A DNA stretch of 32,000 bases from Patescibacteria group bacterium (GCA_041674405.1 JBAYVT010000004.1:60001-92000), one strand, 5' to 3'; counted from the stretch's first letter, positions 10,663-29,147 are shown. The notes: generated by a model not told the origin, from the letters alone. A program made the numbers and translations.

Positions 10663-10664
10663 GC

Positions 10665-15436: not shown

Positions 15437-17329
15437 TTAGTTGCTAGCCAAATTTTCATATTTTCCGGAATTAACCATGTTATTATAAACTTCTGAAAAC
15501 AAAAGATAATTGTTCGCTCCTGTTCCCGCTAAGATGGCCTGGGAAGAGTAAATCGAGGGGACAAGATTCGCGGCTTTAAAAGTTGCAGTCAGCGTAGAAG
15601 TTAAGTCATCCCAGCCCTCAAAGGTAATAGTGGCCGATGAGTTATGTTGGCTATTTGGTATCCAATTTTTGGCTTGGTCTAAGGGTCCGATCTTTGCCCA
15701 AACACTGCCCCGTTGAGTCTGTGCTGCAGTCTTCAGTGCAGAGTACTTCGCAACATTTCTAAATTGAATTTTTGCTCGTAATACGTAGGCATAAGAGCTT
15801 CCTCCGCCTCCTGTTCCGCCTGCGGCGGTTCCGCTATCGGTTGTACCACCGCTAGGTGTACCACTAGTGGAATCCGTTCCAGTTCCGGAGGCTTCAGAGC
15901 TGGCAGGAGAGCTTTGTGGCTCACTGGCCTTGGCGCAGACATCAGTTTTGTTTGCCGAGGCTGATCCCGTTGCCTCGTCAGTGACTCCAAGCGATTTTTC
16001 CATTATTCCAAGTGACCAACAATAAAACGCGTTTGCCCAATTGTTTAGTATTATTGTCAGGCCGCAAAATGCACTAGCGATCATATTTACAATATATGAT
16101 TGGTCCGACACGTCGCATTCAGTTTTTCCGTCATTGGTCGAATTTAATCTTCCAGCATCCCAGAAACCCCTTGGGCCCATAACTAGCTGTAAACTGCAAT
16201 TTTTTGCTGCCGGGTCGCTAATACTTCCGTCAGCTCCAATCGTAACTTCATAATTCTGGTTCATAAAAATTTCCATATTGTTTTCTGTGGCTTGTCTTGC
16301 CTCTGACCAATCTTTGAAACCTCCTTGTGTGGGAGTATCGGGTCGGGTGACACTGTTCGGCTGGTCAGGGTTGTCATTTTTTAAGAAAAATTCCGGCATA
16401 ATTTTATAAGTTCCGGCCGGAAGGCCAGAGAGATCTGCGGACCACTGACCACTGGGTGTTCCCTCATTTGAAATCAAAACATATCCTTTGGAAATATTTC
16501 CCATCGAGGCATTTACATATGTATCAGTTGCAATTTTGAATTGGATGTAAACTGGCACATCTAGTGTCCTTGTGGCACCGGCGTCCATAAAATCCCCCGG
16601 CCATTGGACCTTGTCTTTTGGAGCCAGTTTTTTATCATTCTCAGAAAGTTTGTCCCAATAAACTGATTTCGAAAAATCAATCGCTGCAGTTCCACAGATT
16701 TTAGTACCATTGGGGATTTTTTGGGTATAAAAATTGTTAACTTTTTGGAAAATTCCAGCCACATTGCTATTTTCAGCACCAACTCCACCGTTCATATAAA
16801 AGATATAATCTTTCATGCTTTGATCAAGAGTAGGGAGCTCTTTTGATGAAGTGCCCATGGTACTCGGAAGTACCTCATACGTTTTATTATCAGTCCCCCT
16901 GTGTAACCAGAGGTAAAAATCCTTACCCTGAAGGCTTTCCTTTTTGTACAACCCCAGGGTTTCGGCATTTTTAAAACGAACCCCCAGGTAGAATCCTGCT
17001 TGTCCTTGCATCTGATACATCAAGATGCCTTCGTCATCGGTGATACCCCCTACGGTTGCAACAACAGGTGGTAAACCATTAAATGGTTTACCTGCCTTCC
17101 ATAGCTCACCAGAAATCTTTTGGGGAGATGAAAATTTGTGGCCCGTTTCTGTTGCCCCCAATTTTTCTGTAATAGTTGTGGAGGAAACGTCGAAGTAATA
17201 ATCATATTTTTGGCCTGGTGTGGGAATCATGGCTGCGCGCGCGCGGGGAGTTGTGTATGTAAACAACCCAAATAAGTTTGCTGATAGCAGCAAAACAGAT
17301 AAGGCCAAAGAATAAATTTTTTTAATCAC
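15437..17329 (-). CDS. Secreted/cell-surface protein of unknown family (630 aa)
   Basis: GTG 17329 follows GGAGGGGAT. Signal peptide MIKKIYSLALSVLLLSANLFGLFTYTTPRARA. One internal hydrophobic segment (IVNMIASAFCGLTIILNNWANAFYCWSLGI). A Ser/Thr/Gly-rich linker (SGTGTDSTSGTPSGGTTDSGTAAGGTGGGG) and a ~130-aa C-terminal domain. Confidence 0.8.
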   Translation of the reverse strand: MIKKIYSLALSVLLLSANLFGLFTYTTPRARAAMIPTPGQKYDYYFDVSSTTITEKLGATETGHKFSSPQKISGELWKAGKPFNGLPPVVATVGGITDDEGILMYQMQGQAGFYLGVRFKNAETLGLYKKESLQGKDFYLWLHRGTDNKTYEVLPSTMGTSSKELPTLDQSMKDYIFYMNGGVGAENSNVAGIFQKVNNFYTQKIPNGTKICGTAAIDFSKSVYWDKLSENDKKLAPKDKVQWPGDFMDAGATRTLDVPVYIQFKIATDTYVNASMGNISKGYVLISNEGTPSGQWSADLSGLPAGTYKIMPEFFLKNDNPDQPNSVTRPDTPTQGGFKDWSEARQATENNMEIFMNQNYEVTIGADGSISDPAAKNCSLQLVMGPRGFWDAGRLNSTNDGKTECDVSDQSYIVNMIASAFCGLTIILNNWANAFYCWSLGIMEKSLGVTDEATGSASANKTDVCAKASEPQSSPASSEASGTGTDSTSGTPSGGTTDSGTAAGGTGGGGSSYAYVLRAKIQFRNVAKYSALKTAAQTQRGSVWAKIGPLDQAKNWIPNSQHNSSATITFEGWDDLTSTLTATFKAANLVPSIYSSQAILAGTGANNYLLFSEVYNNMVNSGKYENLASN

Positions 17330-17345
17330 ATCCCCTCCGAATACA

Positions 17346-17996
17346 CTATTTGTTCAGCTCGTCTAGATATTTTGTAACATTTTCATTGGTCGGCTCGGCT
17401 AATCTTGCTTTTTGCCAGGATTCTTCTGCTTTCCCCCTGTAAAATTCTCTTGATTCACCCGATATCTCTGCGTCCTTCATCATATAATAATTTGCAAGCC
17501 CCAGATATATCCACGCATCAGCGTAATTTTCGTCCATTTCGGTTGCGGTGGTCGCAACGAGTATTGCCAGGTCGGGTCGGCCGTTTTCAATGTAGGCTTT
17601 AGCATCTTTTACAGCTTCCGATTCATTTTGCGGAACCTTGTTGGCTTCTGAGAGATCGTTCAGCGCATCTATGTCATTAATCTCTCTGAAAAATGGCTCT
17701 AGTTTTGTAATGTCCTTTTCGCTTTCCCTGGCTATAATTGTCCGTTCGTTAGCCTTGCTGCTACCTGCCAGGAACGCTGCTTTGCGGTATTCGACTAATG
17801 CAGATATAAATTTGCGATTTTTCAAAAAATCATCGCCCGAAGTTATATATTTATTTGTACCCGAAACTCTGGCGGGGCTTAAGGCGAAATACAAAATAAC
17901 AATCAGCAACAAGCCTATAACTGACCACAAAGCTGCTTTTTTCCATGATTTCTCCCCGAAATTATGCGGAGGTTTACGGGTGGCTACCTTTTTCAA
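17346..17996 (-). CDS. Membrane-anchored TPR-like repeat protein
   Basis: TTG start at 17996, 3 nt after the uppP stop. TM segment ALWSVIGLLLIVILYFAL. TPR-like helices (ALVEYRKAAFLAGS, AWIYLGLANYYMMKD). Confidence 0.7.
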   Translation of the reverse strand: MKKVATRKPPHNFGEKSWKKAALWSVIGLLLIVILYFALSPARVSGTNKYITSGDDFLKNRKFISALVEYRKAAFLAGSSKANERTIIARESEKDITKLEPFFREINDIDALNDLSEANKVPQNESEAVKDAKAYIENGRPDLAILVATTATEMDENYADAWIYLGLANYYMMKDAEISGESREFYRGKAEESWQKARLAEPTNENVTKYLDELNK

Positions 17997-17999
17997 GAA

Positions 18000-18821
18000 T
18001 TATCTCACAAAATAAACTATAACGACAACCAGCGCCACGATAACCCTATACCAAGTAAATATGGCGTAATTTCCCTTTTGCAAATATTGTAACAGATATT
18101 TTATTGCAATAAAACCAAATATTGCTGAAGTTAAAATTCCGACAAAAAATCCGGCATCCAACATCCCGGCATCAATGTGGCGAAATTTAAATAGCGAGGT
18201 TCCTAGCATGATTGGGGCGGCCAGAAGGAATGAAAATCTGGCGCTATCTGGCCTGGTCAAGCCTATTGCCCTTCCTGCGGCCATCGTTGATCCGGCTCGT
18301 GATACTCCGGGTACAATCGCCAACATTTGGGCCAAACCAACTAGTAATCCGAGCTTATAGTTTACAGCTTTTAGCTGATAGCTTCTTTTTGCATATCGAT
18401 CAATCATCCAAATAATAATACCAAAGACGGCTAGATTGATAGCAACAAGAAGCGGATTACGAAAAATCGTTTCGGCATTTTTTTCCAAAAGCACTCCGGC
18501 AATAGATCCCGGAATTGTGGCAACAATGATGATCCAAAGAAGATTCTTTGGATAGCTGCTAGCTGTTAGCTGTAAGCTGTCAGCTTTTTCCGACCCGCTC
18601 TTACTTGAGAATGCCGATCGGAAAATATTCACCCAGTCTTTCCAAAAAAAGGCGATGATAGCGAGGAGTGTGCCGAAATGCAGCGCGACGTCAAATGTTA
18701 ATCCGAAATCTTGCCAGTGAAAAAGCCATGGCGTAAGAACAAGGTGCGCGGACGAGGAAATCGGTAAAAACTCGGTGATTCCTTGAATAATTCCAAGGAT
18801 TGCAGGCTGAATTATGCTCAT
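18000..18821 (-). CDS. uppP: Undecaprenyl-diphosphatase (BacA/UppP)
   Basis: MSIIQPAILGIIQGITEFLPISSSAHL is the canonical UppP N-terminus; PGVSRAGSTMAAG is also present. Start moved to ATG 18821, which forms an ATGA overlap with the PAP2 stop. GGAGGA lies 6 nt upstream. Confidence 0.95.
   Translation of the reverse strand: MSIIQPAILGIIQGITEFLPISSSAHLVLTPWLFHWQDFGLTFDVALHFGTLLAIIAFFWKDWVNIFRSAFSSKSGSEKADSLQLTASSYPKNLLWIIIVATIPGSIAGVLLEKNAETIFRNPLLVAINLAVFGIIIWMIDRYAKRSYQLKAVNYKLGLLVGLAQMLAIVPGVSRAGSTMAAGRAIGLTRPDSARFSFLLAAPIMLGTSLFKFRHIDAGMLDAGFFVGILTSAIFGFIAIKYLLQYLQKGNYAIFTWYRVIVALVVVIVYFVR
18554..18588 (-). repeat. Five tandem 7-nt units AGCTGNN (+ strand) in frame inside uppP
   Basis: agctgct agctgtt agctgta agctgtc agctttt. 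Encodes ADSLQLTASSYP in a loop of UppP. Confidence 0.9.
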
Positions 18822-19384
18822 GAAACGTCCTCCAGTTTCCAATATTTTTGAGATTTATGCACAAAAAGAAATGAAAAAATGCCCGATGCTATTCCGAGAA
18901 GTGCTCCCCCTATAACATCGGAGGGATAATGTAGCCCTACGCCAATTCGGGAAATTGCAACCAAAATTGCAACGGCAAATAAAAATACTCCCAGTTTCTT
19001 GTGTCCATACAAAAATATTGCCGTTGCAATTGCAAAGGCAATATAGGTGTGAGAAGACGAAAAAGATGAGGTATGAATGCTAATATTTACATTTTCAGGG
19101 AAAACAAGCTCGGGATGAGAGATAAACGGACGGGGACGGCTCCAGAATATTGAAATAATAATGTCCGTAATCAAGGCCACCCCTGTTGCTAGAGCGGCGC
19201 CTATCAGAGCATTGATCCTTCTTTGCCAGATTAAATATATTGTTGAGAGGACCGAGATTATTACCCCGTAAGCAGCAAAAAAATAGAACAAAAGGCCAAG
19301 TGCGGGGTAGTTCAAATTTGCCCTATGGAAATAAAGGTATAACGTAAAATCGTAATGTCTGATTGCATCAAATAAATTCTGCAT
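18818..19384 (-). CDS. PAP2-family phosphatase (phosphatidic acid / undecaprenyl-PP phosphatase type)
   Basis: PAP2 motifs SFSSSHT and GLHYPSDVIGGALLG, with multiple TM segments. The track start is ATG 19393. The second ATG at 19384 lies exactly 7 nt downstream of an extended -10 and is preferred as a leaderless start. Confidence 0.85.
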   Translation of the reverse strand: MQNLFDAIRHYDFTLYLYFHRANLNYPALGLLFYFFAAYGVIISVLSTIYLIWQRRINALIGAALATGVALITDIIISIFWSRPRPFISHPELVFPENVNISIHTSSFSSSHTYIAFAIATAIFLYGHKKLGVFLFAVAILVAISRIGVGLHYPSDVIGGALLGIASGIFSFLFVHKSQKYWKLEDVS

Positions 19385-19391
19385 TAAATTC

Positions 19392-19402
19392 ATTCTAGCA
19401 CA
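19392..19402 (-). promoter_or_regulatory. Extended -10 promoter TGTGCTAGAAT driving PAP2/uppP and probably the downstream T4SS-like train
   Basis: Reverse complement of 19392-19402. The identical 11-mer occurs upstream of tsaD (24932-24942). There is a 7-nt gap to ATG 19384. Confidence 0.5.
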
Positions 19403-19404
19403 GA

Positions 19405-19413
19405 TGGTATAAT
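19405..19413 (+). promoter_or_regulatory. Extended -10 promoter TGGTATAAT for the xerC-like gene (leaderless)
   Basis: TGGTATAAT at 19405-19413, with a 7-nt gap to ATG 19421. It sits back to back with the minus-strand promoter, 2 nt away. Confidence 0.55.
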
Positions 19414-19420
19414 GGTGGCT

Positions 19421-20482
19421 ATGAAAGACCTTTTTAGGTTGAAGCGAGAATTTTTAGAATACTGCGAGATTGAAAAGGGCCAATCTCTTTTGACGATTGA
19501 AAATTATGACAGATACCTGTCTCGTTTTTTAACTTGGCTAAAAACCGAGAAAACTCAAAACTCAATCCGCCAACCGGCGGGCAAAAGCCAAAACAAAGGG
19601 AGTGCACTACAGACTACAGACTACAGACTACGGACTTCTGATATTGACCAGGAGATTATTCGCAAATATCGTCTATACATCAATCGTTTGCAGGGGGCGG
19701 ATGGCAGAGAACTTAAGGCAACGACACAGAATCACCATATTTTGGCCTTGAGGGCATTTTTGCGCTACCTTTCCTTTTCCGGTGAGAAGGTAATTTCGCC
19801 GGAAAAATTGACATTGGCCAAAACCGGAGATCGGGAAGTGAGTTTTCTGAACAAGGAGGAATATCTGCGCCTGCTTGATGCCCCGAATACCGCGAATTTG
19901 AATGGCCTACGTGATAAATCAATGCTTGAGCTTTTGTTTTCGACCGGTTTGCGCGTTTCTGAGCTTTGCGGCCTCAAGCTGGGGCAGATGAATTTTGACA
20001 AAGGAGAAATTGCTGTTCTGGGAAAAGGGAAAAAACTGAGAGTAGTATTCTTGTCAGATGTTACGCTCAAATATTTGGCCGACTATCTTGTAAACCGCAA
20101 AGTTTTGAAAATTATCGCTGACGACAGCTCAAGTCAATTGCAATATTTTATTTCAGAAACTTATAAAGATGATCCAGTTTTTCTTTCAAATCGCAAGAAT
20201 CCAATCAAACCCAGAGCAGTGGAGCGCCTGGTACAGAAATATGCCAAAGTTGCCGGAATTACTAAAACAGTCACGCCCCACACTCTTCGCCACACTTTCG
20301 CAACTGACTTGCTCGGTGCTGGTGCTGACATTCGTAGCGTTCAATCGCTTTTAGGGCATTCTAATATTTCCACGACTCAAGTCTATACTCACGTCACCGA
20401 CAAACACCTGAGGGAGATACACCAGAAATTCCACGATCGATCTCGTATAGAAGTAGATGAGGAACAAAAAAATTCGGGTTAA
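19421..20482 (+). CDS. xerC: Tyrosine recombinase, XerC/XerD-like
   Basis: C-terminal catalytic signature HTLRHTFATDLLGAGADIRSVQSLLGHSNISTTQVYTHV. The N-terminal SAM-like domain is interrupted by a ~30-aa low-complexity insertion. The track start at 19412 overlaps the -10 element, so ATG 19421 is preferred. Confidence 0.9.
   Translation: MKDLFRLKREFLEYCEIEKGQSLLTIENYDRYLSRFLTWLKTEKTQNSIRQPAGKSQNKGSALQTTDYRLRTSDIDQEIIRKYRLYINRLQGADGRELKATTQNHHILALRAFLRYLSFSGEKVISPEKLTLAKTGDREVSFLNKEEYLRLLDAPNTANLNGLRDKSMLELLFSTGLRVSELCGLKLGQMNFDKGEIAVLGKGKKLRVVFLSDVTLKYLADYLVNRKVLKIIADDSSSQLQYFISETYKDDPVFLSNRKNPIKPRAVERLVQKYAKVAGITKTVTPHTLRHTFATDLLGAGADIRSVQSLLGHSNISTTQVYTHVTDKHLREIHQKFHDRSRIEVDEEQKNSG
19550..19563 (+). 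repeat. Two tandem 7-nt units AAAACTC in frame inside xerC
   Basis: aaaactc aaaactc. Related AAAACTC/AAYCTCA words occur in tsaD (25175-25195) and valS (28191-28225). Confidence 0.8.
19606..19633 (+). repeat. Four tandem 7-nt units ACTACAG x3 + ACTACGG in frame inside xerC
   Basis: Indexed base by base. Encodes LQTTDYRLR. Confidence 0.95.
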
Positions 20483-20494
20483 ACCGAATTTTTT
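20467..20494. terminator. A/T-flanked hairpin (aaaaaaattcgg-gttaaa-ccgaatttttt) at the xerC stop; weak bidirectional terminator
   Basis: The stop TAA (20480-20482) sits in the loop. An A-run lies upstream and a T-run downstream. The stem has only 3 GC pairs. Confidence 0.45.
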
Positions 20495-20509
20495 AATATC
20501 CAATATTGA

Positions 20510-20680
20510 TTAATTGTTATCTGGTATATCATTCCACATATCGAATACTTCTACCTGGCAAATCGCCACCTCTTTGGGGCAGTTGGCGATTTCTGTTTTG
20601 ATCTGCTCGATACGATGAAAATTCGAATTCACAGGAATTTTTGTTTTTGTATCTTCAATTTTATTTACTTTGAGTTTCAT
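20510..20680 (-). CDS. Small hypothetical protein (56 aa), below the ORF-track cutoff
   Basis: ATG 20680 to TAA 20510, translating to MKLKVNKIEDTKTKIPVNSNFHRIEQIKTEIANCPKEVAICQVEVFDMWNDIPDNN. GAAGG lies 11 nt upstream. It is convergent with xerC onto the bidirectional hairpin. Confidence 0.35.
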   Translation of the reverse strand: MKLKVNKIEDTKTKIPVNSNFHRIEQIKTEIANCPKEVAICQVEVFDMWNDIPDNN

Positions 20681-20702
20681 TTTTGTTTTGCCTTCGGCAA
20701 TT

Positions 20703-20779
20703 ACTTATGAACATAAGAACTTATGAACGGAAGAACAATTTTATGTTTCGGTTCTTCAGTCCTTCGGTTCTTCAGTTTC
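20703..20779. repeat. Intergenic tandem repeats: 2 x 16 nt (acttatgaacRKaaga) and 2 x 16 nt (tcggttcttcagtYYY)
   Basis: 20703-20718/20719-20734 and 20748-20763/20764-20779. They contain GGAAGAAC and its complement GGTTCTTC, the same 8-mer word as the valS insertion at 28956-28987. Confidence 0.9.
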
Positions 20780-20799
20780 CGAAGGGATTAGATCATTAT

Positions 20800-20839
20800 A
20801 ACAAAAACGACACCCCGTGTCAACCAGTGACACGGGGTA
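20800..20839 (-). terminator. Intrinsic terminator of GC-island A gene
   Basis: Minus strand reads accccgtgtca-ctggt-tgacacggggtg followed by TCGTTTTTGTT. The stem is 11-12 bp and GC-rich, 56 nt after stop 20895. Confidence 0.7.
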
Positions 20840-20894
20840 CAGCTCTCGTCTATTCCGTTGTGGCCCAGTCTTGAGCTTGGCGGTTGGTTGGGGG

Positions 20895-21389
20895 TTATCC
20901 GGCACCCCCGTTCCAGTGTTTACCCAGCTCCGGAGGCTCCTCCGGCTGGATGTGCGGCTGTCCGGCGGGCGTCGGCGGATCAGCTCGTCTTGTTCGTTTG
21001 CGACAAGCAAGGACAACGATCGCCAGCCCAGCCAGAATAGCCAAGGTAACTCTGTAGTTCCCTGCCAGGCCCAGAGTGATCACCAGGGCCCCGATACACC
21101 ACAGCATTGCCTTAGCCGACATCTCCCTGCTCTGTTCCCTGCTATTGTCGATACCACGGCTACTGCCCATGGTCGCTCCTTTCCTCAATTTCGGAATTCG
21201 CTTCAGAAGTTGCGAGAGTGCCAGTGGCCAATTTGTCCGAAGGACAACAAATATGGCTGCTGCGCAGGCAAGGGCAAAAACGATCATTGCGAAGTAGGCA
21301 AGAATCCCGATCGAGTTGAGTGTCCCGATCGTGAATATTGCTGTGAACGTTCCGACAAGCAACCCACTCGACGATTTTTGTGGCAACAA
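20895..21389 (-). CDS. GC-rich small integral membrane protein (4 predicted TM), unknown function
   Basis: TTG 21389 lies 7 nt after AGGAGG. TM segments GLLVGTFTAIFTIGTL, IGILAYFAMIVFALACAAAIFVV, MLWCIGALVITLGLAG and TLAILAGLAIVVLA. It has its own terminator. The opposing 212-aa + ORF is Arg/Ser/Cys-rich junk. Confidence 0.7.
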   Translation of the reverse strand: MLPQKSSSGLLVGTFTAIFTIGTLNSIGILAYFAMIVFALACAAAIFVVLRTNWPLALSQLLKRIPKLRKGATMGSSRGIDNSREQSREMSAKAMLWCIGALVITLGLAGNYRVTLAILAGLAIVVLACRKRTRRADPPTPAGQPHIQPEEPPELGKHWNGGAG

Positions 21390-21478
21390 TTTCGACCTCC
21401 TGAGGGACGGGCTTGTTTGTTCGCAGAAACAAAAAACACAACGAGCAACAACTAGAAATCCAGGGTGTTACCGCTGTG

Positions 21479-22807
21479 TCACCTGTCTTCTCCAAACAAA
21501 CGGATAAGTTCCTCACGTACGACCTTGCGGTCGGAGTAGGGAACGAACTCATGTAAGCCGACTGCCATCACTTCTTCTGCTCCTTTTCCAGTAACGACAA
21601 CAACATCATTTTTTTTTGCTTCCTTTATCGCTTTGTGAATAGCTTGTTTTCGATCGAGGACTTTCCAATAATTTCGATTCAACCGCCACTGATGTTTCTT
21701 GCCGCCGCGGAAAATACCCTCTGAAACCTGCTCGATAATATCGGCAGGATTCTCGTCATACGGATCTTCGTCGGTAAAAATCACCAGATCAGCATAGTGT
21801 CCGGCAAGCGCGCCCATGATCGGGCGCTTAGTCTTGTCTCTATGGCCGGTGGCACCAAGCACGGCGATCAATCGCCCACCAGTTTTTTGTATGCTATCAG
21901 TCACTGTTTCATAAACATTTTTCAGGGAATCGGCGTTGTGGGCATAGTCCACGATTACGGTAAAGTCTTGTTTTTTACTTACTTTAATCGATTCCATTCT
22001 CCCGGTAACTCCGGACATATTCTCAAGTCCCATCCTAGTCTTTTCTGTATCGAGTCCCAAGGCAAGACCGACAGAAAATGCGGCTAAAGCATTTAGAACG
22101 TTAAAAATTCCTGGCATTTTCAAGTTGATTGTGGACTGGCCATTGTCGTATGCGGCAGTGAAAGTAACGCTCTCGGGAGAGGTCAATATTTTTCTTGCAA
22201 CCGCTCCGTGATCAACCTGCTTCTTAACTGAGTACAAAAATTTTTCGGAGGCTGGGAGAGAGTAGAATTTATTCCATTCTGCGTCATCACTATTGATAAT
22301 AAATTTTGCTTTTGGGTGATCGCGGAAAAGTTTAAGTTTGGCGTTCAGATAGTTCTCTTTGGTTTTGTGATACTCCATGTGCTCGTGCGAAAGGTTGGTG
22401 TAAACCAACACATCGAAATCGATTCCATAAATCCTGTTTTGGTCGATCGCTTGTGAAGTCACCTCTAAAATTGCATATTCACACTTATTGGCCACCGCTC
22501 TTTTCAAAAATCTTTGAATCACATCGGAGGGAGGAGTTGTTACCCATCGATCTTTGGTTTTGTGCGCGGTTATTTCGTCGTTTATTTTCGTATTGATGGT
22601 TGTTTCCATCGCGTTTTTGATGCCATTGGCATCGAGAACAGAAGCGATCATATTACAAACGGTGGTTTTCCCTTTGGTACCGGTAACGCCGATTACTTTG
22701 AGTTTTTTCGCCGGGTGGCCATATTTAAAACCGGCCCATGAAGCCTCAGCTCTGTGGAGCTTGTTTTTCGTTTTCTGCGATAAAATTTTAGATATTAGTC
22801 GTTTCAT
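21479..22807 (-). CDS. murE: MurE-like Mur ligase (UDP-MurNAc-L-Ala-D-Glu: diamino acid ligase), N-terminal domain truncated
   Basis: P-loop VIGVTGTKGKTT. NLSHEHMEYH, VIVDYAHNADSL and GATGHRDKTKRPIMG fit MurE. The mDAP-specifying DNPR position reads DEDPY (no Arg). Only ~40 aa precede the P-loop. Confidence 0.8.
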   Translation of the reverse strand: MKRLISKILSQKTKNKLHRAEASWAGFKYGHPAKKLKVIGVTGTKGKTTVCNMIASVLDANGIKNAMETTINTKINDEITAHKTKDRWVTTPPSDVIQRFLKRAVANKCEYAILEVTSQAIDQNRIYGIDFDVLVYTNLSHEHMEYHKTKENYLNAKLKLFRDHPKAKFIINSDDAEWNKFYSLPASEKFLYSVKKQVDHGAVARKILTSPESVTFTAAYDNGQSTINLKMPGIFNVLNALAAFSVGLALGLDTEKTRMGLENMSGVTGRMESIKVSKKQDFTVIVDYAHNADSLKNVYETVTDSIQKTGGRLIAVLGATGHRDKTKRPIMGALAGHYADLVIFTDEDPYDENPADIIEQVSEGIFRGGKKHQWRLNRNYWKVLDRKQAIHKAIKEAKKNDVVVVTGKGAEEVMAVGLHEFVPYSDRKVVREELIRLFGEDR

Positions 22808-22810
22808 ATT

Positions 22811-22882
22811 TTATTGCTAAATTGCTGTATTGCTAAATTGCTTACACAACAATTTGACAATTTAACCATTTAACAATTTATC
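22811..22882. repeat. Nine consecutive 8-nt units filling the murE/FemAB-gene spacer
   Basis: ttattgct aaattgct gtattgct aaattgct tacacaac aatttgac aatttaac catttaac aatttatc. The array overlaps the FemAB-gene stop (22878-22880). CAATTTAAC recurs in tsaD at 25691 and 25707. Confidence 0.95.
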
Positions 22883-23792
22883 TTCGGATTTTTTCCGCAA
22901 TTTTAAATAATTGGTATTCGAATGGTTTATAAACCTTGTCGTAACTGCCCATAATTTTAACTTCATCTCCACCGAACTGCTTTTTGAATCTGGTAACTCC
23001 TGCCCATAAGTGGCGCGGGTTGTCATCCGGCGCAATTCCGAAGAAGTCGTATATTTTGCAGCCGCGGCTTATGGCATTTTGAATCATTTCCCATTGTAAT
23101 TTGTATGGCGCCATTAGGTTCTTGAATTCGTCACTTGAGGCACCAAAAAGATAGATTGCTGAGCCCTGATAAATGCTGCAGATTGCCGCTGCTAAGACGA
23201 CTTCCTCACCTTCAATTTCGGCATAAGCTTCGAACAACTCACAATATCCCTTGGGTTCAAGAAAGTCAAGCAACTTCTGAAAATATTCCTCACCTCTAAA
23301 TGTAATTCCATGTCTCTTGCCTGTCTTCTCGTAGAGCTTGTAAAAATTACTGGCATCTCTTGTTTTTCTCACCAGAATATTATTTTTTTCGGCAACCTTG
23401 ATGTTATAGCGGCCTTTCTGTTTCATCTCACCAAGAAGGTCATCATTCGATTTGGAGAGGTCAAGAACTAGGGTGTGTTCCGGCTGCATCTCCTCGAAAG
23501 ATTTAATTAGTCCATAGTCTGTAGTCTGTAGTTCATAGTCTGTGGGGATATCGAATTCAATCCGGTAGAAAATTGCATTTTCCTCTTTTGCTATTTGAAA
23601 GGTTTGGTTCCAGTAGCTTTGGTTTTTGACATTTGAAATTTGATCTTGACTCGCCATCGGCGAGTATAACATCGACCTTCCCATTGGCAGGTCTTTTTTG
23701 AGCACCAAAATATCCTCGACGCGAAAGGATTTCGAATAGCCTGTAGCGAGTTTAAATTTCTCCCATTCGGGAGATTGAAATATAGAACTCAT
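22878..23792 (-). CDS. FemAB-family peptidoglycan interpeptide-bridge aminoacyltransferase
   Basis: N-terminus MSSIFQSPEWEKFKLATGY, and the overall FemX/FemAB-like pattern (YLFGASSDEFKNLMAPYKLQWEMI, GVTRFKKQFGG). Confidence 0.8.
   Translation of the reverse strand: MSSIFQSPEWEKFKLATGYSKSFRVEDILVLKKDLPMGRSMLYSPMASQDQISNVKNQSYWNQTFQIAKEENAIFYRIEFDIPTDYELQTTDYGLIKSFEEMQPEHTLVLDLSKSNDDLLGEMKQKGRYNIKVAEKNNILVRKTRDASNFYKLYEKTGKRHGITFRGEEYFQKLLDFLEPKGYCELFEAYAEIEGEEVVLAAAICSIYQGSAIYLFGASSDEFKNLMAPYKLQWEMIQNAISRGCKIYDFFGIAPDDNPRHLWAGVTRFKKQFGGDEVKIMGSYDKVYKPFEYQLFKIAEKIRR
23513..23547 (-). repeat. Five tandem 7-nt units (coding sense ACTATGA ACTACAG ACTACAG ACTATGG) in frame inside the FemAB-family gene
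   Basis: The + strand reads catagtc tgtagtc tgtagtt catagtc tgtgggg. Encodes YELQTTDYG. Confidence 0.95.
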
Positions 23793-23799
23793 TACCTAA

Positions 23800-23808
23800 A
23801 TATTATCA
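23800..23808 (-). promoter_or_regulatory. Extended -10 promoter TGATAATAT for the FemAB-family gene (leaderless)
   Basis: Reverse complement of 23800-23808, with a 7-nt gap (ttaggta) to ATG 23792. This is the same geometry as the xerC and PAP2 promoters. Confidence 0.5.
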
Positions 23809-23828
23809 CTCTTGCCTCTTGCTGCCAA

Positions 23829-23870
23829 TAAAAAAGAGGGCCTCCTGACCCGGTGGGACTGGGTCGGAGG
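23829..23870 (-). terminator. Intrinsic terminator at the left edge of GC-island B
   Basis: Minus strand reads cctccgaccc-agtcccacc-gggtcaggagg (one bulge) followed by CCCTCTTTTTTA. Confidence 0.65.
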
Positions 23871-23885
23871 CGGTGCGGGTTGCGG

Positions 23886-24110
23886 CTATCCTGAGAGAAT
23901 ATCGCATCCCCGGGGAGGCTCCTTGCGATGGCCATGGATTGCCTTCATTGCCGTCAGGCGGTAGCTCTGTCCATGTATCTTCGACATCGCTTCGTGGTGA
24001 CGGATGCGCCACATAACGCGCTCCGTCATACCTGGCTTGGGTAAATCGGAATGGGCTCCGACCACCAAACCAAGCGTACATCCCAATCTCTGATTTGCTG
24101 TCTTTATCAT
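23886..24110 (-). CDS. GC-rich small ORF (74 aa), reading frame uncertain
   Basis: ATG 24110 lies 8 nt after GGAGGAG, and stop 23886 lies 16 nt before the terminator stem. Hand-counted third-position G+C is 43/74. The competing 112-aa frame (23806-24144) runs through the terminator and has lower GC3 (about 42/88). The protein (MIKTANQRLGCTLGLVVGAHSD...) matches nothing I recognise. Confidence 0.3.
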   Translation of the reverse strand: MIKTANQRLGCTLGLVVGAHSDLPKPGMTERVMWRIRHHEAMSKIHGQSYRLTAMKAIHGHRKEPPRGCDILSG

Positions 24111-24195
24111 GTCCACCACTCCTCCAGAAGTTCTGTGATTCCAAGCTAGTGTAAAATTACTATAATGTCAAGCTCTGCATTAGATAATTTGGCAT

Positions 24196-24233
24196 ATAAA
24201 AAATTAAGCCCCCACCTAGCGTGTAGGTGGGGG
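24196..24233 (-). terminator. Intrinsic terminator inside GC-island B
   Basis: cccccacct-acacgct-aggtggggg (9-bp stem, 24209-24233) followed on the minus strand by CTTAATTTTTTATA. The stem overlaps the last codons and stop of the 62-aa ORF. Confidence 0.65.
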
Positions 24234-24404
24234 TGCGACTTGCGGGACCATCTCGATGCTGTTGCGCGGCACTTCGTGCCGTCTCAGTGTACCGCCATCG
24301 AGAGCGGCGCGGACGACAGCTTTGCCGCCTTTGTATTCGATGAGAGTACCACCAGTGTACTTGCCGTCTTTCTGCCTGATTCTCACGCGCGCGTTGATGG
24401 GCAT
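24216..24404 (-). CDS. GC-rich small protein (62 aa), possibly an SH3/KOW-like beta-barrel
   Basis: ATG 24404 is preceded by GAGGTGAAAGGC (the track start at 24413 is GTG). Sequence MPINARVRIRQKDGKYTGGTLIEYKGGKAVVRAALDGGTLRRHEV. It has its own terminator and an AT-rich upstream patch at 24430-24475. Confidence 0.5.
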   Translation of the reverse strand: MPINARVRIRQKDGKYTGGTLIEYKGGKAVVRAALDGGTLRRHEVPRNSIEMVPQVAPPPTR

Positions 24405-24496
24405 GCCTTTCACCTCGTGGCAGTATTTCAGTCCAACTCATTGTTAATATATCAAAAAAATATGCAGAGTAAACAGCAACACCGCAGGCGTGTTGC

Positions 24497-24868
24497 CTAC
24501 GGTGCGCGGTCGCTTCGAGGCGAAGTTGCCCAGTCTACACAGCCCAGGAGGCCTGCGTGGACGAGCGGGCGAATAGCCCCTGCCAACTTGGTCGTCGTCA
24601 TCGGGTCGCGTGGAATTCCATCCCAGGAAATGATGGTTCCGTTTCTGAAGTAGCGGGGCGTTTCCTTACCATCCCTGTTATAGGTGGTGACTTTGACGAT
24701 CCCGCATGGCTCCAGATTGTAACCGCCATTGCCTGTGATTCTGTCCACATCTGCCAACATGGTTGCGATTAGGCGTCGCTCTTTGGAAGACAGACAGCTC
24801 CTTCGCTTTAGCACCATGAGGTGCAAGGTGATAACCTCCTTCTTCGACAGAATTCCAATCCTCTGCAT
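24497..24868 (-). CDS. GC-rich hypothetical protein (123 aa)
   Basis: The ATG 24868 ORF spans the right part of island B. No recognised motifs and no clear SD. It is divergent from tsaD. Confidence 0.45.
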   Translation of the reverse strand: MQRIGILSKKEVITLHLMVLKRRSCLSSKERRLIATMLADVDRITGNGGYNLEPCGIVKVTTYNRDGKETPRYFRNGTIISWDGIPRDPMTTTKLAGAIRPLVHAGLLGCVDWATSPRSDRAP

Positions 24869-24931
24869 TATGGTTTTAGATAATTGATTGAGTCAACCCA
24901 ACAATTTTCCGAGTGGTAAAAAGTTTGGTTT

Positions 24932-24942
24932 TGTGCTAGAAT
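24932..24942 (+). promoter_or_regulatory. Extended -10 promoter TGTGCTAGAAT for tsaD
   Basis: Identical 11-mer to the PAP2 promoter. An 11-nt gap to ATG 24954 and no SD, implying a very short leader. Confidence 0.5.
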
Positions 24943-24953
24943 TTTTCAGTTAA

Positions 24954-26168
24954 ATGACAAAGAAAAACCTAAAAATTTTAGCAATCGAAACAAGCTGTGA
25001 TGAGACGGCTGCTGCTGTGATTTCTGAAAATCGAAATAAACCAGAAATACTATCGAACATTGTTTCTTCACAAATTGATCTTCATGCTAAGACCGGCGGA
25101 GTAGTGCCGGAAGTTGCATCGAGAGCGCATATGGAGGCGATATTGCCTGTCGTAAGTGAGGCGCTTGTACAGGCAAAACTCAAAAATCCAGAAAAACTAC
25201 GGACTACGGACTACAACCTACAAACTGGTCTGTCGGATATCACCCATATTGCCGTAACTGCTGGGCCAGGGCTGATCGGCTCACTCTTGGTTGGGTTCAA
25301 CACGGCAAAATCGCTGGCTTATTCGCTGGATTTGCCAATCATTCCAATCAATCATATAGAAGGACATGTGTACTCCGCATTCGCGGAGCAATTTCCAATT
25401 CCCAATTTCCAATTTCCAATTCTAGCATTGACTGTGTCTGGCGGCCATAGCTCGTTAACTTTGATGAAAGATCACGGAATCTATGAAAATTTGGGTCAGA
25501 CTTTAGATGATGCGGCGGGAGAAGCTTTCGACAAGGTTGCGAAACTTCTCGATCTTGGTTATCCAGGAGGACCGGTGGTTTCTAAACTCGCGGACGAGTT
25601 AAGAAACAAAGTCAAAAATCAAAGATCACCCGTCTCGGCCGAGGCACGATCCGAGGTCGGAAAGATCAAAAATAATAAAGAAAAAAATAGCAATTTAACA
25701 ATGAAACAATTTAACAACGAGATTGTATTTCCCCGTCCGATTCTGAATGACGGCACATTCAATTTCTCATTTTCCGGATTAAAAACCGCGGTTTTGACGG
25801 AGGTGGTCAAACTAAGGACTAAGGACTACGAACTACCGACTAGTGAAATCTGTGCGGCATTTGAAGATTCGCTTACCGATGTGCTTACGACAAAAACAAT
25901 GAGAGCGATTGATAAATTCAAACCAAAAGGTTTGATTCTTGCCGGAGGAGTAGCGGCCAACAGCTATCTGCAAGCCGAACTTCAACGGAAGGTTAATGAA
26001 TACAATCAGACTTTAAAGAAAAGAGATCAGATTAATTTTTATATGCCTCCGCGGGATATGACAGGTGACAATGCGGCGATGATCGGTCTTGCAGCTTACT
26101 ATCATATATCGAGGGGAGATGTAAAAGGGTGGGACGAGATCGAAGTCGATTCAAATTTTAAGCTCTAA
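24954..26168 (+). CDS. tsaD: tRNA N6-adenosine threonylcarbamoyltransferase TsaD, carrying four repeat-derived insertions
   Basis: ILAIETSCDETAAAV, TAGPGLIGSLLVG, HIEGH, VSGGHS, FSFSGLKTAV and GGVAAN are all canonical TsaD/Kae1 motifs. Confidence 0.95.
   Translation: MTKKNLKILAIETSCDETAAAVISENRNKPEILSNIVSSQIDLHAKTGGVVPEVASRAHMEAILPVVSEALVQAKLKNPEKLRTTDYNLQTGLSDITHIAVTAGPGLIGSLLVGFNTAKSLAYSLDLPIIPINHIEGHVYSAFAEQFPIPNFQFPILALTVSGGHSSLTLMKDHGIYENLGQTLDDAAGEAFDKVAKLLDLGYPGGPVVSKLADELRNKVKNQRSPVSAEARSEVGKIKNNKEKNSNLTMKQFNNEIVFPRPILNDGTFNFSFSGLKTAVLTEVVKLRTKDYELPTSEICAAFEDSLTDVLTTKTMRAIDKFKPKGLILAGGVAANSYLQAELQRKVNEYNQTLKKRDQINFYMPPRDMTGDNAAMIGLAAYYHISRGDVKGWDEIEVDSNFKL
25196..25228 (+). repeat. 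Tandem 7-nt units ACTACGG ACTACGG ACTACAA CCTACAA ACTGG in frame in tsaD
   Basis: Encodes KLRTTDYNLQTG. Preceded by aaaactcaaaaatccagaaaa. Confidence 0.95.
25389..25423 (+). repeat. Five tandem 7-nt units CAATTYC in frame in tsaD
   Basis: caatttc caattcc caatttc caatttc caattct. Encodes QFPIPNFQFPIL immediately before the VSGGHS motif. Confidence 0.95.
25691..25718 (+). repeat. Direct repeat CAATTTAACAA x2 (period 16) in frame in tsaD, within a ~38-aa insertion
   Basis: caatttaacaa tgaaa caatttaacaa. The surrounding insertion reads NKVKNQRSPVSAEARSEVGKIKNNKEKNSNLTMKQFNNE. Confidence 0.9.
25811..25845 (+). repeat. Five tandem 7-nt units ACTAAGG ACTAAGG ACTACGA ACTACCG ACTAGTG in frame in tsaD
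   Basis: Encodes KLRTKDYELPTSE. Confidence 0.95.
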
Positions 26169-26178
26169 AACGGCGAAC

Positions 26179-26202
26179 GCCACCCCGATGTTCTGGGGTG
26201 GC
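26179..26202. terminator. GC-rich hairpin gccacccc-gatgttct-ggggtggc between the convergent tsaD and island C genes
   Basis: 8-bp stem. The + strand is followed by GCGCTTTGTTCTT and the minus strand by GTTCGCCGTTTTA. Confidence 0.55.
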
Positions 26203-26229
26203 GCGCTTTGTTCTTGGTGGTGGCCGCTA

Positions 26230-26745
26230 CTAGGCGACCAACCGCAGGGTCGTGTCGAAGCCGGAAAGCCAGGTCGCGACCTGGTCGTAGGCCTCTCTGG
26301 CCCCGTTGTCGAAGTCCTCAGGCCGCAGGATCTGGTCGCTGGGGACCATTATCCGCGACTGCAGCTCCGCTTCCGGAACGCCGGTTGCCCGCTCTGTGGC
26401 CTCGAAGGGCGCTCCTGCTAGGAAGTCCTCGATGGTTAACGGGCCGCCGGAAGTGACATCCCCGAACTGCTTGGATGAGATGACCACATAGCCGCCAGTG
26501 GCGAGCGTGGCCATCATGTCGATGTGGGTCCGAGCAACGTTCCTCTCGGTGACGTAGTAGAGCTCGGCGACGCGGACGTCGCGGGCCATCACAAAGTTGG
26601 GAATGTTCCCCGGAACATGGCGCGGCGCCAGGCGGACCGGAGTGAACGGCGCGTCCTCAAGTGCCTTTGCGAGAAGGCGCCCATGGCCGGGGTTGCCGGC
26701 CACGATGAGCAATGTGGCTTGGTTTATCACAAGCATTACCTCCAT
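26230..26745 (-). CDS. GC-rich hypothetical protein with a degenerate P-loop-like N-terminus
   Basis: LLIVAGNPGHGRLLAKAL resembles GxPGSGKSTLAKAL of small P-loop kinases but lacks the Lys-Ser/Thr. GGAGG lies 8 nt before GTG 26730, suggesting the true start is there (MINQATLLIVAGNPGHG). Confidence 0.65.
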   Translation of the reverse strand: MEVMLVINQATLLIVAGNPGHGRLLAKALEDAPFTPVRLAPRHVPGNIPNFVMARDVRVAELYYVTERNVARTHIDMMATLATGGYVVISSKQFGDVTSGGPLTIEDFLAGAPFEATERATGVPEAELQSRIMVPSDQILRPEDFDNGAREAYDQVATWLSGFDTTLRLVA

Positions 26746-26771
26746 GGGTTTGTTCCGTCCTGCTCGAGCAT

Positions 26772-26800
26772 TTTATATCATAAAATAAACAAATTGTCAA
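26772..26800 (-). promoter_or_regulatory. Sigma70-type promoter for the island C gene: TTGACA, 17 nt, TATAAA
   Basis: -35 is the reverse complement of 26795-26800 and -10 the reverse complement of 26772-26777. It lies in AT-rich DNA just outside the GC-rich block. Confidence 0.55.
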
Positions 26801-26897
26801 TCGTAAATACGAATAATTGTTCATCTGGTGCGTTTTTATTGGATTCAGCCTCTTTTTGTGTTATTCTTAAGCACGAAACTGGTTAATTTCGGAAGTT

Positions 26898-29147
26898 ATG
26901 TCAAAAGAATTCGCCAAAACCTGGGACTCGAAGAAGTTTGAAGAGGATTTATACCAAAACTGGGAAAAATCCGGCTATTTCAAGCCTGAATTGAACATGC
27001 CCGAAAATCCAAAATATGATCGGGCGCTCGAAGGCAAACCATTCGTCATCCCAATTCCGCCGCCGAATGTCACCGGCAAGCTTCACATCGGCCATTCGTT
27101 ATTCATCACAATTCAGGATGTCATGATCCGCTTCCATCGCATGCTTGGCGAGCCCACGCTTTGGATCCCCGGCACCGATCACGCCGGTATCGCTACGCAG
27201 ACGGTCGTGGACAAAGCCTTACAAAAAAAGGGAATTAAGCGCCACGAAATTGGCCGTGAGAAATTTGTCGAAGAAGTTTGGAAGTGGAAAGAAGAATACG
27301 GCGGTATTATCACCTCACAACTCAAACGAATGGGTGCTTCCTGCGACTGGTCGCGCGAGCGTTTTACCCTCGACGAAGGTTTATCCAAAGCTGTGAAAGA
27401 GGCATTTGTCCACCTATACGAGAAGGGATTGATCTACCGCGGCGAATATATCGTCAATTGGTGCCCGAAATGCGGCACGGCGATCGCGGATGACGAGATG
27501 GAGCACGAAGAACAAACCGCAAAATTGTACTATTTCAAATACGACAAAAACTTTCCGATCACCATAGCAACTACCCGGCCAGAAACCAAACTTGGAGATA
27601 CGGCTGTGGCGGTCAATCCAACCGACAAGCGTTATGAGCAGTACATTGGCAAAGAATTCGATGTTGATATCGATGGCGTTAAGCGCAAGATCAAAATTGT
27701 TGCCGATCGCTCTATTGATATGAAATTCGGTACCGGCGCAGTCGGAATTACGCCTGCACACTCGGCTATCGACTGGAAAATCGGTGAAGTTAATGATCTT
27801 CCGATTGTCAAAGTCATCGACGAACGAGCAAAAATGACCGCCGAGGCCGGCAAATACGAGGGAATGAAGGTGCTCGAAGCCCGAGAAAAACTAGTTGAAT
27901 ATCTGAAAGGCGAAACACTCCTGGAAAAAGAGGAGCCGATCACAAATAATTTGAGCGTCTGCTACCGCTGCAACACGGCTATAGAGCCGATTCCGTCTCT
28001 ACAGTGGTTTGTGAGTATGCGCCCACTGGCAGAAAAAGCTAAAGCGGCCGTAACCTCCGGCGCTATCAAAATTATCCCGAAAAGATTTGAGAAGAATTAC
28101 AATCAGTGGATGGACAATATCCGCGACTGGTGCATCTCCCGCCAGCTTTGGTGGGGACACAGAATCCCGGTTTGGTATCGCAAACAGGAAAATCTCAAAC
28201 CTCAAACCTCAAATCTCAAACCCGAAGACATCTATGTCGGAAAAGAACCGCCAGCTGATATTGAGAGTTGGATTCAAGACGAAGATGTGCTCGATACCTG
28301 GTTTTCCTCGGCGCTTTGGCCGTTTTCTTCACTTGGTTGGCCAGAGAAAACCAAAGATCTGCAGTATTTCTATCCGGCAACCGTTCTCGAAACCGGATAT
28401 GACATTCTCTTTTTCTGGGTCGCCCGAATGGTAATGATGGGACTTGAGCTTACTGATTCGATTCCATTTGAGAATATTTACCTCCACGGCTTGGTTCGCG
28501 ATGAGAAAAATAGAAAGATGTCCAAGTCTCTCGGCAATGCGCTCGATCCGCTCGATATGATCGATAAATACGGCACAGATGCTGTCCGGATGGGTCTTGT
28601 GGTCGGCACTACCCCCGGGCTTGATATTCCTGTGGGTGAGCACAAGCTTAAGAATTATCGCAATTTCTCGAACAAAATCTGGAATGCCTCGCGCTTCGTT
28701 TCTCTTCGAGTTTCCGAAGGTGATCTGGCCTCGGGAGAAATTGGAGATGAGAAAATCGAGAACTTAAATATCGACCAATCAATTTTAACCGACGCCGACA
28801 AAAAAATTCTCGAAGCACACGAGGAAATCAAAAAGCGCGTGACAAAAGACCTCAAGGAGTTCAAATTCTCTGGCGCCGGCGAAGGGCTATATGAGTATTT
28901 CTGGCACAATTTCTGCGATATCTACATAGAAGCTGCTAAAGGGCAGCTCCAAACTGAAGAACCGAAGAACCGAAGAACCGAAGAACATTCAGAAAACACA
29001 AAAAAAATCCTGCTCAAAGTTCTGTCTGAATCTTTACAGATGCTGCATCCGTTCGTTCCTTATGTCACCGAAGCTGTCTGGCAGGAACTACGCGAAATTT
29101 ATCCAAAACTTTCCGAATCGATCATGATCTCCAAGTGGCCTATGTAA
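26898..29147 (+). CDS. valS: Valine--tRNA ligase (short form, no long C-terminal coiled coil), carrying two repeat-derived insertions
   Basis: PPPNVTGKLHIGHS (HIGH motif), TTRPETKLGDTAVAVNP and RKMSKSLGN (KMSKS motif). A possible extended -10, TGGTTAATT (26880-26888), lies 9 nt before the ATG. Confidence 0.95.
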   Translation: MSKEFAKTWDSKKFEEDLYQNWEKSGYFKPELNMPENPKYDRALEGKPFVIPIPPPNVTGKLHIGHSLFITIQDVMIRFHRMLGEPTLWIPGTDHAGIATQTVVDKALQKKGIKRHEIGREKFVEEVWKWKEEYGGIITSQLKRMGASCDWSRERFTLDEGLSKAVKEAFVHLYEKGLIYRGEYIVNWCPKCGTAIADDEMEHEEQTAKLYYFKYDKNFPITIATTRPETKLGDTAVAVNPTDKRYEQYIGKEFDVDIDGVKRKIKIVADRSIDMKFGTGAVGITPAHSAIDWKIGEVNDLPIVKVIDERAKMTAEAGKYEGMKVLEAREKLVEYLKGETLLEKEEPITNNLSVCYRCNTAIEPIPSLQWFVSMRPLAEKAKAAVTSGAIKIIPKRFEKNYNQWMDNIRDWCISRQLWWGHRIPVWYRKQENLKPQTSNLKPEDIYVGKEPPADIESWIQDEDVLDTWFSSALWPFSSLGWPEKTKDLQYFYPATVLETGYDILFFWVARMVMMGLELTDSIPFENIYLHGLVRDEKNRKMSKSLGNALDPLDMIDKYGTDAVRMGLVVGTTPGLDIPVGEHKLKNYRNFSNKIWNASRFVSLRVSEGDLASGEIGDEKIENLNIDQSILTDADKKILEAHEEIKKRVTKDLKEFKFSGAGEGLYEYFWHNFCDIYIEAAKGQLQTEEPKNRRTEEHSENTKKILLKVLSESLQMLHPFVPYVTEAVWQELREIYPKLSESIMISKWPM
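28191..28225 (+). repeat. Five tandem 7-nt units AAYCTCA in frame in valS
   Basis: aatctca aacctca aacctca aatctca aacccga. Encodes ENLKPQTSNLKPE. Confidence 0.95.
28956..28987 (+). repeat. Four tandem 8-nt units GAAGAACC in frame in valS
   Basis: gaagaacc x3 + gaagaaca. Encodes TEEPKNRRTEEH. The reverse complement ggttcttc occurs twice in the 20748-20779 spacer. Confidence 0.95.

Follow-up and report, generated by a model that had tools for sequence, protein, structure and literature searches.

How does nearly the same short peptide come to stand in unrelated proteins, and why is the DNA repeat that encodes it always read in the same direction? This question is raised by a stretch of 32,000 nucleotides (GCA_041674405.1 JBAYVT010000004.1:60001-92000; hereafter the window) that lies on a metagenomic contig of 158 kb (ENA ERZ27247358) from an uncultured Patescibacteria bacterium of the candidate phyla radiation (CPR). 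A preliminary description had pointed to four tandem arrays of a seven-nucleotide unit, ACTAYRG, inside the genes for a Xer-like tyrosine recombinase, a FemAB-family protein and TsaD, and had taken them as an argument for selection filtering a DNA-level insertion process. Our analysis leads us to think that the arrays are probably heptanucleotide simple-sequence repeats (SSRs), of the kind known as short tandemly repeated repetitive (STRR) sequences or long SSRs, that occupy loop-coding parts of housekeeping genes, are turned over by slippage and are filtered by reading frame, stop codons and what a protein loop tolerates.

Results

Four arrays of one unit family inside three genes

All four arrays lie where they had been reported, and their sequences and translations match (Table 1). 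The array of the Xer-like gene is translated as A-LQTTDYRLR-TS, while the sense strand of the FemAB-family gene reads ACAG ACTATGA ACTACAG ACTACAG ACTATGG ACTA and gives PTDYELQTTDYGL. Of the two tsaD arrays, the one at the loop that we call site 1 consists of ACTACGG ACTACGG ACTACAA CCTACAA ACTGG (giving KLRTTDYNLQTG) and the one at site 4 of ACTAAGG ACTAAGG ACTACGA ACTACCG ACTAGTG (giving KLRTKDYELPTS). The peptide LQTTDY that had been described for all three proteins is found exactly in the Xer-like and FemAB-family proteins; TsaD has LRTTDY and LRTKDY instead, and only TTDY/DY-x-L is common to the three.

A search for the two-unit pattern ACTAYRGACTAYRG with no more than two mismatches returned 12 matches versus 0.76 expected, a number that none of 100 shuffled sequences attained. 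Every one of these matches falls inside the four arrays and is sense to its gene, with none antisense, in agreement with the uniform orientation reported before. Beyond this family, Tandem Repeats Finder and an in-house period scan detected eight arrays of period 7 in the window (2.3-4.7 copies each) compared to about 0.1 in shuffles, while periods 4-6 and 8-12 yielded only 0-3 arrays each, i.e., the enrichment is confined to period 7. All eight of these arrays are located inside genes. Three independent assemblies (ERZ27247358, SRR6484325 and SRR22315508) give the same sequence for the region.

Reading frames, stop codons and orientation

A perfect 7-nt array spans all three frames, just as the preliminary description had stated, with a super-period of 21 nt or seven amino acids, so that every frame of (ACTACAG)n encodes TTDYRLQ or a cyclic permutation of it. 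The stop-codon arithmetic given for ACTACAG and AAYCTCA is also correct: the complement of ACTACAG has a TAG, and that of (ACTACAG)3 reads L*SVVCS. Freedom from stops in the sense direction is a property of ACTACAG and not of the whole family, given that ACTATAG (which falls within ACTAYRG) has a TAG and ACTAAGG, read cyclically, a TAA. Of all possible heptamers, 50% lack stops on both strands and another 37% lack them on just one, while the remaining 13% have a stop on each strand.

With three or more units in antisense, a TAG falls into every frame, and an intact open reading frame (ORF) therefore cannot hold them. The logic by which stop codons had been invoked to explain the orientation of the arrays is thus right, though the "always sense" rule is forced by them, close to tautological and of little evidential weight; taken alone, four sense arrays out of four correspond to p=0.06. 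The same argument has already been published for TAACTGA heptamers (MacGregor 2015, PMC4679880). In other genomes, we found among the matches listed 133 arrays of at least three ACTAYRG units, and every open frame across an array is in the sense direction. Intergenic ACTAYRG arrays of other phyla, again among the matches listed, take both orientations: 31 point the same way as the downstream gene and 46 the opposite way, and for the upstream gene the corresponding numbers are 41 and 39. Antisense copies are thus limited to intergenic DNA in this material, as had been proposed, while copies inside ORFs are sense only.

Selection does show at the level of single units, where substitutions sit exactly at would-be in-frame TAA or TGA codons. 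In the tsaD array at 25811-25845, the third unit, in which the consensus ACTAAGG would place an in-frame TAA, carries a C (TAC), and in the uppP array at 18553-18585 the unit whose consensus would create an in-frame TGA reads TTA. Stop codons are not the sole filter acting on the arrays. The consensus unit has a sense-strand stop in 11 of 33 genic CPR arrays, and units that are stop-free on both strands are found in TsaD homologues mostly in the orientation that gives hydrophilic peptides (EIRNPKS three times versus DFGFRIS once; ESRKSKV and ETRNSKL twice each versus never for their counterparts). The sense strand is A-rich in 24 of the genic CPR arrays versus nine of the opposite kind, which agrees with the A excess of the coding strand (+0.07).

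The same loops carry arrays in related lineages

We compared the window with seven related loci, six of which share the local gene order, the seventh being a TsaD locus with different neighbours (together L124, L125, L126, L127, L187, L188 and L189). Across lineages with about 60-70% protein identity, arrays occupy the same protein loops. The array of the Xer-like gene and the one at TsaD site 4 are common to the window and L124 codon for codon, with CTACAGACTACGGACTACAAACTAC at the same codons of the Xer-like gene in L124. At TsaD site 1 and in the FemAB loop, L124 and L188 have AGCTA-type arrays; the survey of these sites further gave an AACT-type array in L187, an ACTACAG-type array in L127 and no insert at TsaD site 1 in P0003/L187. 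An array of heptamers occupies the TsaD site 4 loop of both the window and L124, and one of octamers that of L188 (4917-4946, AAGAACTG x3.7).

The FemAB loop has 13 codons in four lineages, each with units of its own (GACT, AGCT or AACT type), and there was thus no net insertion at this site. Units resemble each other more within a lineage (identity of 0.81 at the FemAB loop and 0.76 at TsaD site 1) than units at the same position do between lineages (0.68 and 0.59, respectively), a pattern characteristic either of concerted evolution or of arrays that originate anew, time and again, at one fixed loop.

In an AlphaFold2 model of TsaD with a mean predicted local distance difference test (pLDDT) score of 81, the arrays fall into loops, helix ends or non-regular regions, and among them only site 1 is of low confidence (pLDDT ca. 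58). Solved TsaD structures align with gaps at the array positions, and the array loops vary in length between orthologues.

Possible gain and loss of whole units

Evidence bearing on turnover comes from a further tsaD loop, site 2, where the 3' end of an AATTTCC array coincides with the native and invariant F154-P155-I/M motif. Two pairs of relatives, P0027/P0095 (88.6% identity) and P0047/P0106 (78%), differ here by exactly FPISNFQ, i.e., by seven amino acids, 21 nt or three units, immediately upstream of the native FPI. In the DNA, no gap separates the array from the native TTT CCA AT seed, and TTTCCAAT adjoins the 21-nt difference. At this site, codons for identical residues match in 8/8 to 9/9 cases (7/8 and 8/9 in two pairs) compared to 36-49% elsewhere in the gene. 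We had considered a DNA-level constraint on this array and dropped it in view of the 21-nt presence/absence difference among close relatives; from these comparisons, it seems more likely that the array is young and has expanded repeatedly from the conserved TTTCCAAT seed, or that it has been homogenised.

A second case comes from valS of L188 (7559-7960), which gene calling splits in two. The switch of frame, at 7651-7674, falls within (AAATCCG)x3.4, at a site orthologous to window positions 28190-28222, and one extra 7-nt unit would restore it. We found no copy-number alleles of the Xer-like gene array or of TsaD site 4 in metagenome contigs with fixed flanks and a variable gap. Three contigs with identical TsaD match at 100% identity over up to 13 kb and are uninformative on polymorphism.

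Heptamer arrays across CPR genomes and other phyla

In about 108 kb of CPR DNA (the window with its extension L186, L124-L127, L187, L188, L071 and L102), we counted 46 period-7 arrays or about one per 2.4 kb, 33 of which (72%) lie in crude ORFs compared to a crude coding fraction of 83%. None is longer than 33 nt (4.7 units) and 11 of the 46 measure 30-33 nt; intergenic ACTAYRG arrays of other phyla extend to 91 nt among the matches listed, and the CPR length ceiling appears sharp. Among 120 CPR TsaD homologues, the commonest amino-acid period is seven (87 runs versus 1-46 at other periods), and 23 of these 87 runs back-translate exactly to one DNA heptamer, as do only 0.39% of random 7-mers.

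Arrays of at least three ACTAYRG units were found in many phyla, mostly intergenic or just 5' of start codons among the matches listed. Two loci in this list, L071 and L102, are labelled as Patescibacteria, and both have such arrays inside genes; that of L071 is a large helicase-like ORF. We had entertained the idea that ACTAYRG is a special cross-phylum family and dropped it because viral contigs contain permuted control units just as commonly (27 and 14 stretches versus 17 of ACTAYRG). In genomes of Gemmatimonadota and Acidobacteriota, some ACTAYRG arrays come as pairs in inverted orientation, with about 40-95 nt from start to start, that could fold into long hairpins (L010:7360-7440, L055:3596-3711, L060:5025-5096, L065:7711-7775, and L119:3451-3556 and 6214-6324).

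Genomic setting and other repeats

Between 18 and 29 kb, the window encodes UppP, a PAP2 phosphatase, the Xer-like tyrosine recombinase, a Mur ligase, the FemAB-family protein, TsaD and valyl-tRNA synthetase (ValRS). The score of TsaD exceeds the NCBIfam cutoff, the recombinase is Xer-like (XerC/D-like) with a score under the equivalog cutoffs, and the FemAB assignment is good to the family level only.

Table 1. Heptamer arrays, related short repeats and their host genes, in window coordinates
Feature	Position	Strand	Details
ACTACAG array, 4.4 units, Xer-like gene	19606..19636	+	(ACTACAG)x3 + ACTACGG + ACT
ACTAYRG array, ca. 5 units, FemAB-family gene	23512..23547	-	encodes TDYELQTTDYGL
ACTACGG/ACTACAA array, tsaD loop site 1	25196..25228	+	encodes LRTTDYNLQTG
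ACTAAGG/ACTACGA array, tsaD loop site 4	25811..25845	+	encodes LRTKDYELPTS
CAATTTC (AATTTCC) array, 4.7 units, tsaD loop site 2	25389..25421	+	encodes QFPIPNFQFPI
AGCTNAC array, 4.7 units, uppP	18553..18585	- (sense strand)	encodes ADSLQLTASSY
AAACCTC/AAATCTC array (AAYCTCA of the preliminary description), 4.7 units, valS	28190..28222	+	encodes NLKPQTSNLKP
AAAACTC x2.3 short array, Xer-like gene	19550..19565	+	grouped with the AAYCTCA arrays
Octamer array AACCGAAG x4.4, valS	28952..28986	+	in frame; encodes EEPKNRRTEE
Xer-like tyrosine recombinase, host gene	19412..20482	+	356 aa
FemAB-family peptidyltransferase, host gene	22878..23792	-	304 aa
tsaD, host gene	24954..26168	+	404 aa; three heptamer arrays and a 38-aa low-complexity insert
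valS, host gene	26898..29147	+	749 aa
uppP/bacA, host gene	18000..18842	-	carries the AGCTNAC array

A cluster of housekeeping genes spanning about 10 kb (18553-28222) holds all eight period-7 arrays. Neither the upstream 18 kb (1-18500, with TrbL-like and large unannotated ORFs) nor the downstream 13 kb (28300-41237) contains any, and extending the contig rightward by 9.2 kb, to a total of 41 kb examined (window and L186), added none.

The four ACTAYRG arrays have unrelated flanks, with nothing in common outside the repeat block of about 35 nt. We found no inverted repeats around them and no terminal inverted repeats, and a mobile insert of the miniature inverted-repeat transposable element (MITE) or repetitive extragenic palindromic (REP) type was ruled out for want of inverted termini, conserved flanks or target duplications. 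A second kind of in-frame insert does occur in tsaD and the Xer-like gene of relatives in the form of palindromic, REP-like DNA that is translated into peptides such as CHPRPDRGS...DSRLRGND, CHPEQSEGS, RFAQNDK or YCHSREGGNLLLVDPRVKP (L124:7576-8907, L124:2020-3327, and the TsaD homologues P0006, P0016/P0035 and P0020).

TsaD of the window also has a low-complexity insert of 38 amino acids (residues 221-258, window 25607-25720; KVKNQRSP...NLTMKQFNNE) with a pLDDT below 50, which holds decayed 7- and 8-nt repeats (CAAAGAT, CAATTTAA). At the site of this insert, relatives have perfect (TCAATTT)4.5 and (CAAAATT)4.3 arrays (L125:3928-3997). Intergenic tandem repeats of 8 and 16 nt are present at 20703-20777 and 22812-22880 (ACTTATGA, TTCAGTTC, ATTGCTAA and AACAATTT).

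Discussion

Slippage as the proposed generator and selection as the proposed filter

We infer that slippage is the generator of these arrays and selection the filter. The arrays would originate and be turned over where they stand, through slippage of a strand or its misalignment on direct repeats of 7 nt, with whole units gained or lost, and since seven is not a multiple of three each array would be read in all three frames and give a peptide with a period of seven residues. Selection would then retain what satisfies three conditions: a net length change that is a multiple of three (e.g., three units or 21 nt), the absence of in-frame stops (through a sense unit that is stop-free or a substitution in the unit that falls into the dangerous frame) and a peptide that can be tolerated in a surface loop. 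Given a heptamer array under such a filter, nothing further is needed for the TTDY peptide to be shared and for the orientation to be sense only. The proposal that the process acts on DNA rather than on the peptide is upheld, and the selective filter is supported. The insertion process that selection was thought to act on finds no support in our data, in which arrays stand at orthologous loops of relatives, shared flanks and inverted termini are lacking, the FemAB loop keeps its length, units resemble each other more inside a lineage than across lineages, one TsaD array differs among relatives by exactly seven amino acids beside a native seed, and valS of one relative is frameshifted within an array as it would be after losing a single unit.

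Several observations weigh against this explanation. The arrays are short (at most 33 nt, a length that no array in the CPR DNA of about 108 kb surpasses) and imperfect, which is atypical of actively slipping tracts, and for the ACTAYRG arrays we saw no copy-number polymorphism, the three assemblies being identical. TsaD variants at 97-99.8% identity showed no internal indels. The frame change in valS of L188 may be either a genuine allele of this essential gene that slipped by one unit or a mistake of the assembly. The FemAB array shows no net length change compared to L126, whose loop has no obvious heptamer array, and simple expansion alone does not account for this. In addition, the ACTAYRG family alone makes up four of the eight arrays of the window and occupies four loci within 6.2 kb, which independent slippage in situ does not predict, and within each genome the FemAB loop and TsaD site 1 have one and the same unit type (ACTA type in the window, AGCTA type in L124 and L188).

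Alternative origins

It is these last points that give some room to a non-local DNA process, in which heptamer blocks would be copied to new sites or arrays would exchange sequence (e.g., by ectopic gene conversion, template switching or some unknown mobile or enzymatic activity) before selection removes the harmful copies. Beyond the recurrence of one unit family in so small a region, the four arrays are of about equal size (31-36 nt), and several other genomes have (ACTAYRG)n on multiple contigs, such as Blastocatellia SMAG_U10123 on at least five. Dispersed families of a single unit are also known, and as yet unexplained, in cyanobacterial STRRs and the TAACTGA repeats of Beggiatoa. From lineage to lineage, the FemAB loop and TsaD site 1 change their unit type together, which hints at an exchange between these loci, though the sequences that do so come from only about two independent lineages. 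Blocks copied to new sites are hard to reconcile with the lack of shared flanks, target duplications and inverted termini, with arrays at orthologous loops of lineages that share just 60-70% identity, with a FemAB loop that gained nothing in net length and with a 21-nt indel that directly adjoins a native seed. Moreover, ACTAYRG is not over-represented compared to permuted controls. We therefore regard a non-local origin as unlikely, even if it fares best among the alternatives. Somewhat less likely still is that CPR bacteria have an active, lineage-specific process, be it conversion between dispersed arrays or a templated writing of heptamers, that rewrites loops of essential proteins with the current heptamer family. 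If true, such a process would explain why one unit recurs at four loci, why unit types change together and why arrays seem to stop at about 33 nt.

The peptide could instead be what selection maintains, with TTDY or DY-x-L-x-T serving as a protein motif for interaction or modification and the DNA periodicity being secondary. The pattern x-[DSN]-Y-[EK]-L-[EQ]-[TA]-x-[DSN]-[YWFL]-G-[LIF] is kept in the FemAB loop of four lineages, and the preference for hydrophilic orientations would fit as well. However, selection on the protein does not give synonymous positions a period of 7 nt, the peptides are permuted cyclically with different starting phases, and at the same sites relatives hold unrelated peptides encoded by heptamers or octamers (KLEAESYKL, NLRTEELKN) or nothing at all. 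In the TsaD model, the segments are found in loops or non-regular regions, at low confidence for site 1. Taken together, we consider a selected motif to be quite improbable.

We give even less credence to phase variation, in which changes in unit number would switch the genes on and off. As in the non-triplet repeats of phase-variable contingency loci (e.g., in Haemophilus, PMC2651432), any 7-nt unit gained or lost inside an ORF shifts the frame, and valS of one relative is indeed frameshifted inside an array. Yet contingency repeats are long and perfect tracts with documented copy-number switching in surface or restriction-modification genes, while the arrays described here are short (no more than 4.7 units), degenerate and without observed polymorphism, the three samples being identical and close TsaD variants free of indels. 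Their hosts include tsaD, valS and uppP, which are essential housekeeping genes. Chance or an assembly artefact, finally, has nothing in its favour and is refuted by the match count in shuffled sequences, the agreement of three independent assemblies and the presence of arrays in relatives.

Comparison with known heptamer repeats

We thus return to slippage-driven SSRs filtered by selection and ask how the arrays compare with known repeats. STRR heptamers were reportedly described in heterocystous cyanobacteria by Mazel et al. in 1990. Their units include CCCCAGT, TTGGTCA and CAACAGT. Cyanobacterial STRRs (mentioned in PMC4692102) comprise a few heptamer families in short tandem arrays at many loci per genome. 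The genome of the window may be similar in this respect, with ACTAYRG arrays at four loci within 6.2 kb of the 41 kb examined. STRRs are, however, predominantly intergenic and known from another phylum, while the units of the window (ACTAYRG, AGCTNAC, AATTTCC and AAACCTC) are different and all eight arrays genic.

According to the accounts of Mrazek 2007 in PMC4692102 and PMC4679880, heptamers outnumber every other class of long SSRs in the majority of prokaryotic genomes, with polymerase slippage as their proposed source. The heptanucleotide long SSRs of that survey (Mrazek, Guo & Shah 2007) share with our arrays the tandem 7-nt units, the over-representation of period 7 and an occurrence in scattered phyla, and the window likewise has head-to-tail copies at eight sites and at a frequency above chance. 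Copy change by whole units may be reflected in the three-unit difference at TsaD site 2 and the frameshift in L188 valS; the ACTAYRG arrays themselves showed no variation. As relayed in the same two papers, long SSRs are mainly intergenic and in-gene units are expected to be multiples of three, unlike the eight out of eight genic arrays of the window; the survey is described there without Patescibacteria.

The TAACTGA repeats of Beggiatoaceae, cyanobacteria and Bacteroidetes (MacGregor 2015, PMC4679880) are similarly built from one heptamer unit dispersed over the genome. One orientation puts stops in three frames and the other gives a repeat of seven amino acids, LSVISYQ, inside ORFs; in both systems, ORF-internal copies exist only in the stop-free orientation. 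Apart from the different unit, sets of TAACTGA are mostly "forward" and just upstream of start codons, in contrast to the gene-internal arrays studied here, and the few copies inside ORFs belong to hypothetical proteins or lie at the ends of proteins and not in conserved loops of housekeeping enzymes. G-rich heptamers of Xanthomonas and Nostoc (GGGNATC and GGGGAYT; Rehm 2015, PMC4692102) resemble our arrays in their preference for a small copy number of about four units and in the variation of length and sequence at the same locus between close species, but they form G-quadruplexes, are intergenic and depleted in coding DNA, whereas the units of the window are A-rich and coding. Borg tandem repeats and the amino acid tandem repeats (aaTRs) they encode (Schoelmerich 2023, PMC9879509) are a parallel for stop-free, ORF-internal DNA repeats that create new and often disordered protein segments. 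Their units are always divisible by three and near perfect, unlike the short and imperfect repeats of 7 nt (in few cases 8 nt) found here, in which the seven-residue period comes from reading three frames. Our literature search did not find any paper describing heptamer repeats in coding genes of CPR bacteria.

Implications

The arrays are real but in essence an ordinary example of a repeat type that was known before. The literature already covers heptamer SSRs, the excess of them in bacteria and the constraint that stop codons place on their orientation, and the finding as it was stated in the preliminary description matters little. What is distinctive is the host phylum together with the fact that a repeat of non-triplet length is found routinely inside essential and conserved genes: 7-nt repeats are dense in the roughly 108 kb of Patescibacteria DNA examined and are tolerated in such genes at the same loops across lineages, where they supply much of the length variation of these proteins, e.g., of TsaD, whose homologues are 348 to 546 amino acids long. 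This bears on genome annotation, in which low-complexity inserts and apparent frameshifts like that of L188 valS have to be interpreted, on the alignment and phylogeny of CPR marker proteins, and on the origin of new protein loops from a non-triplet repeat.

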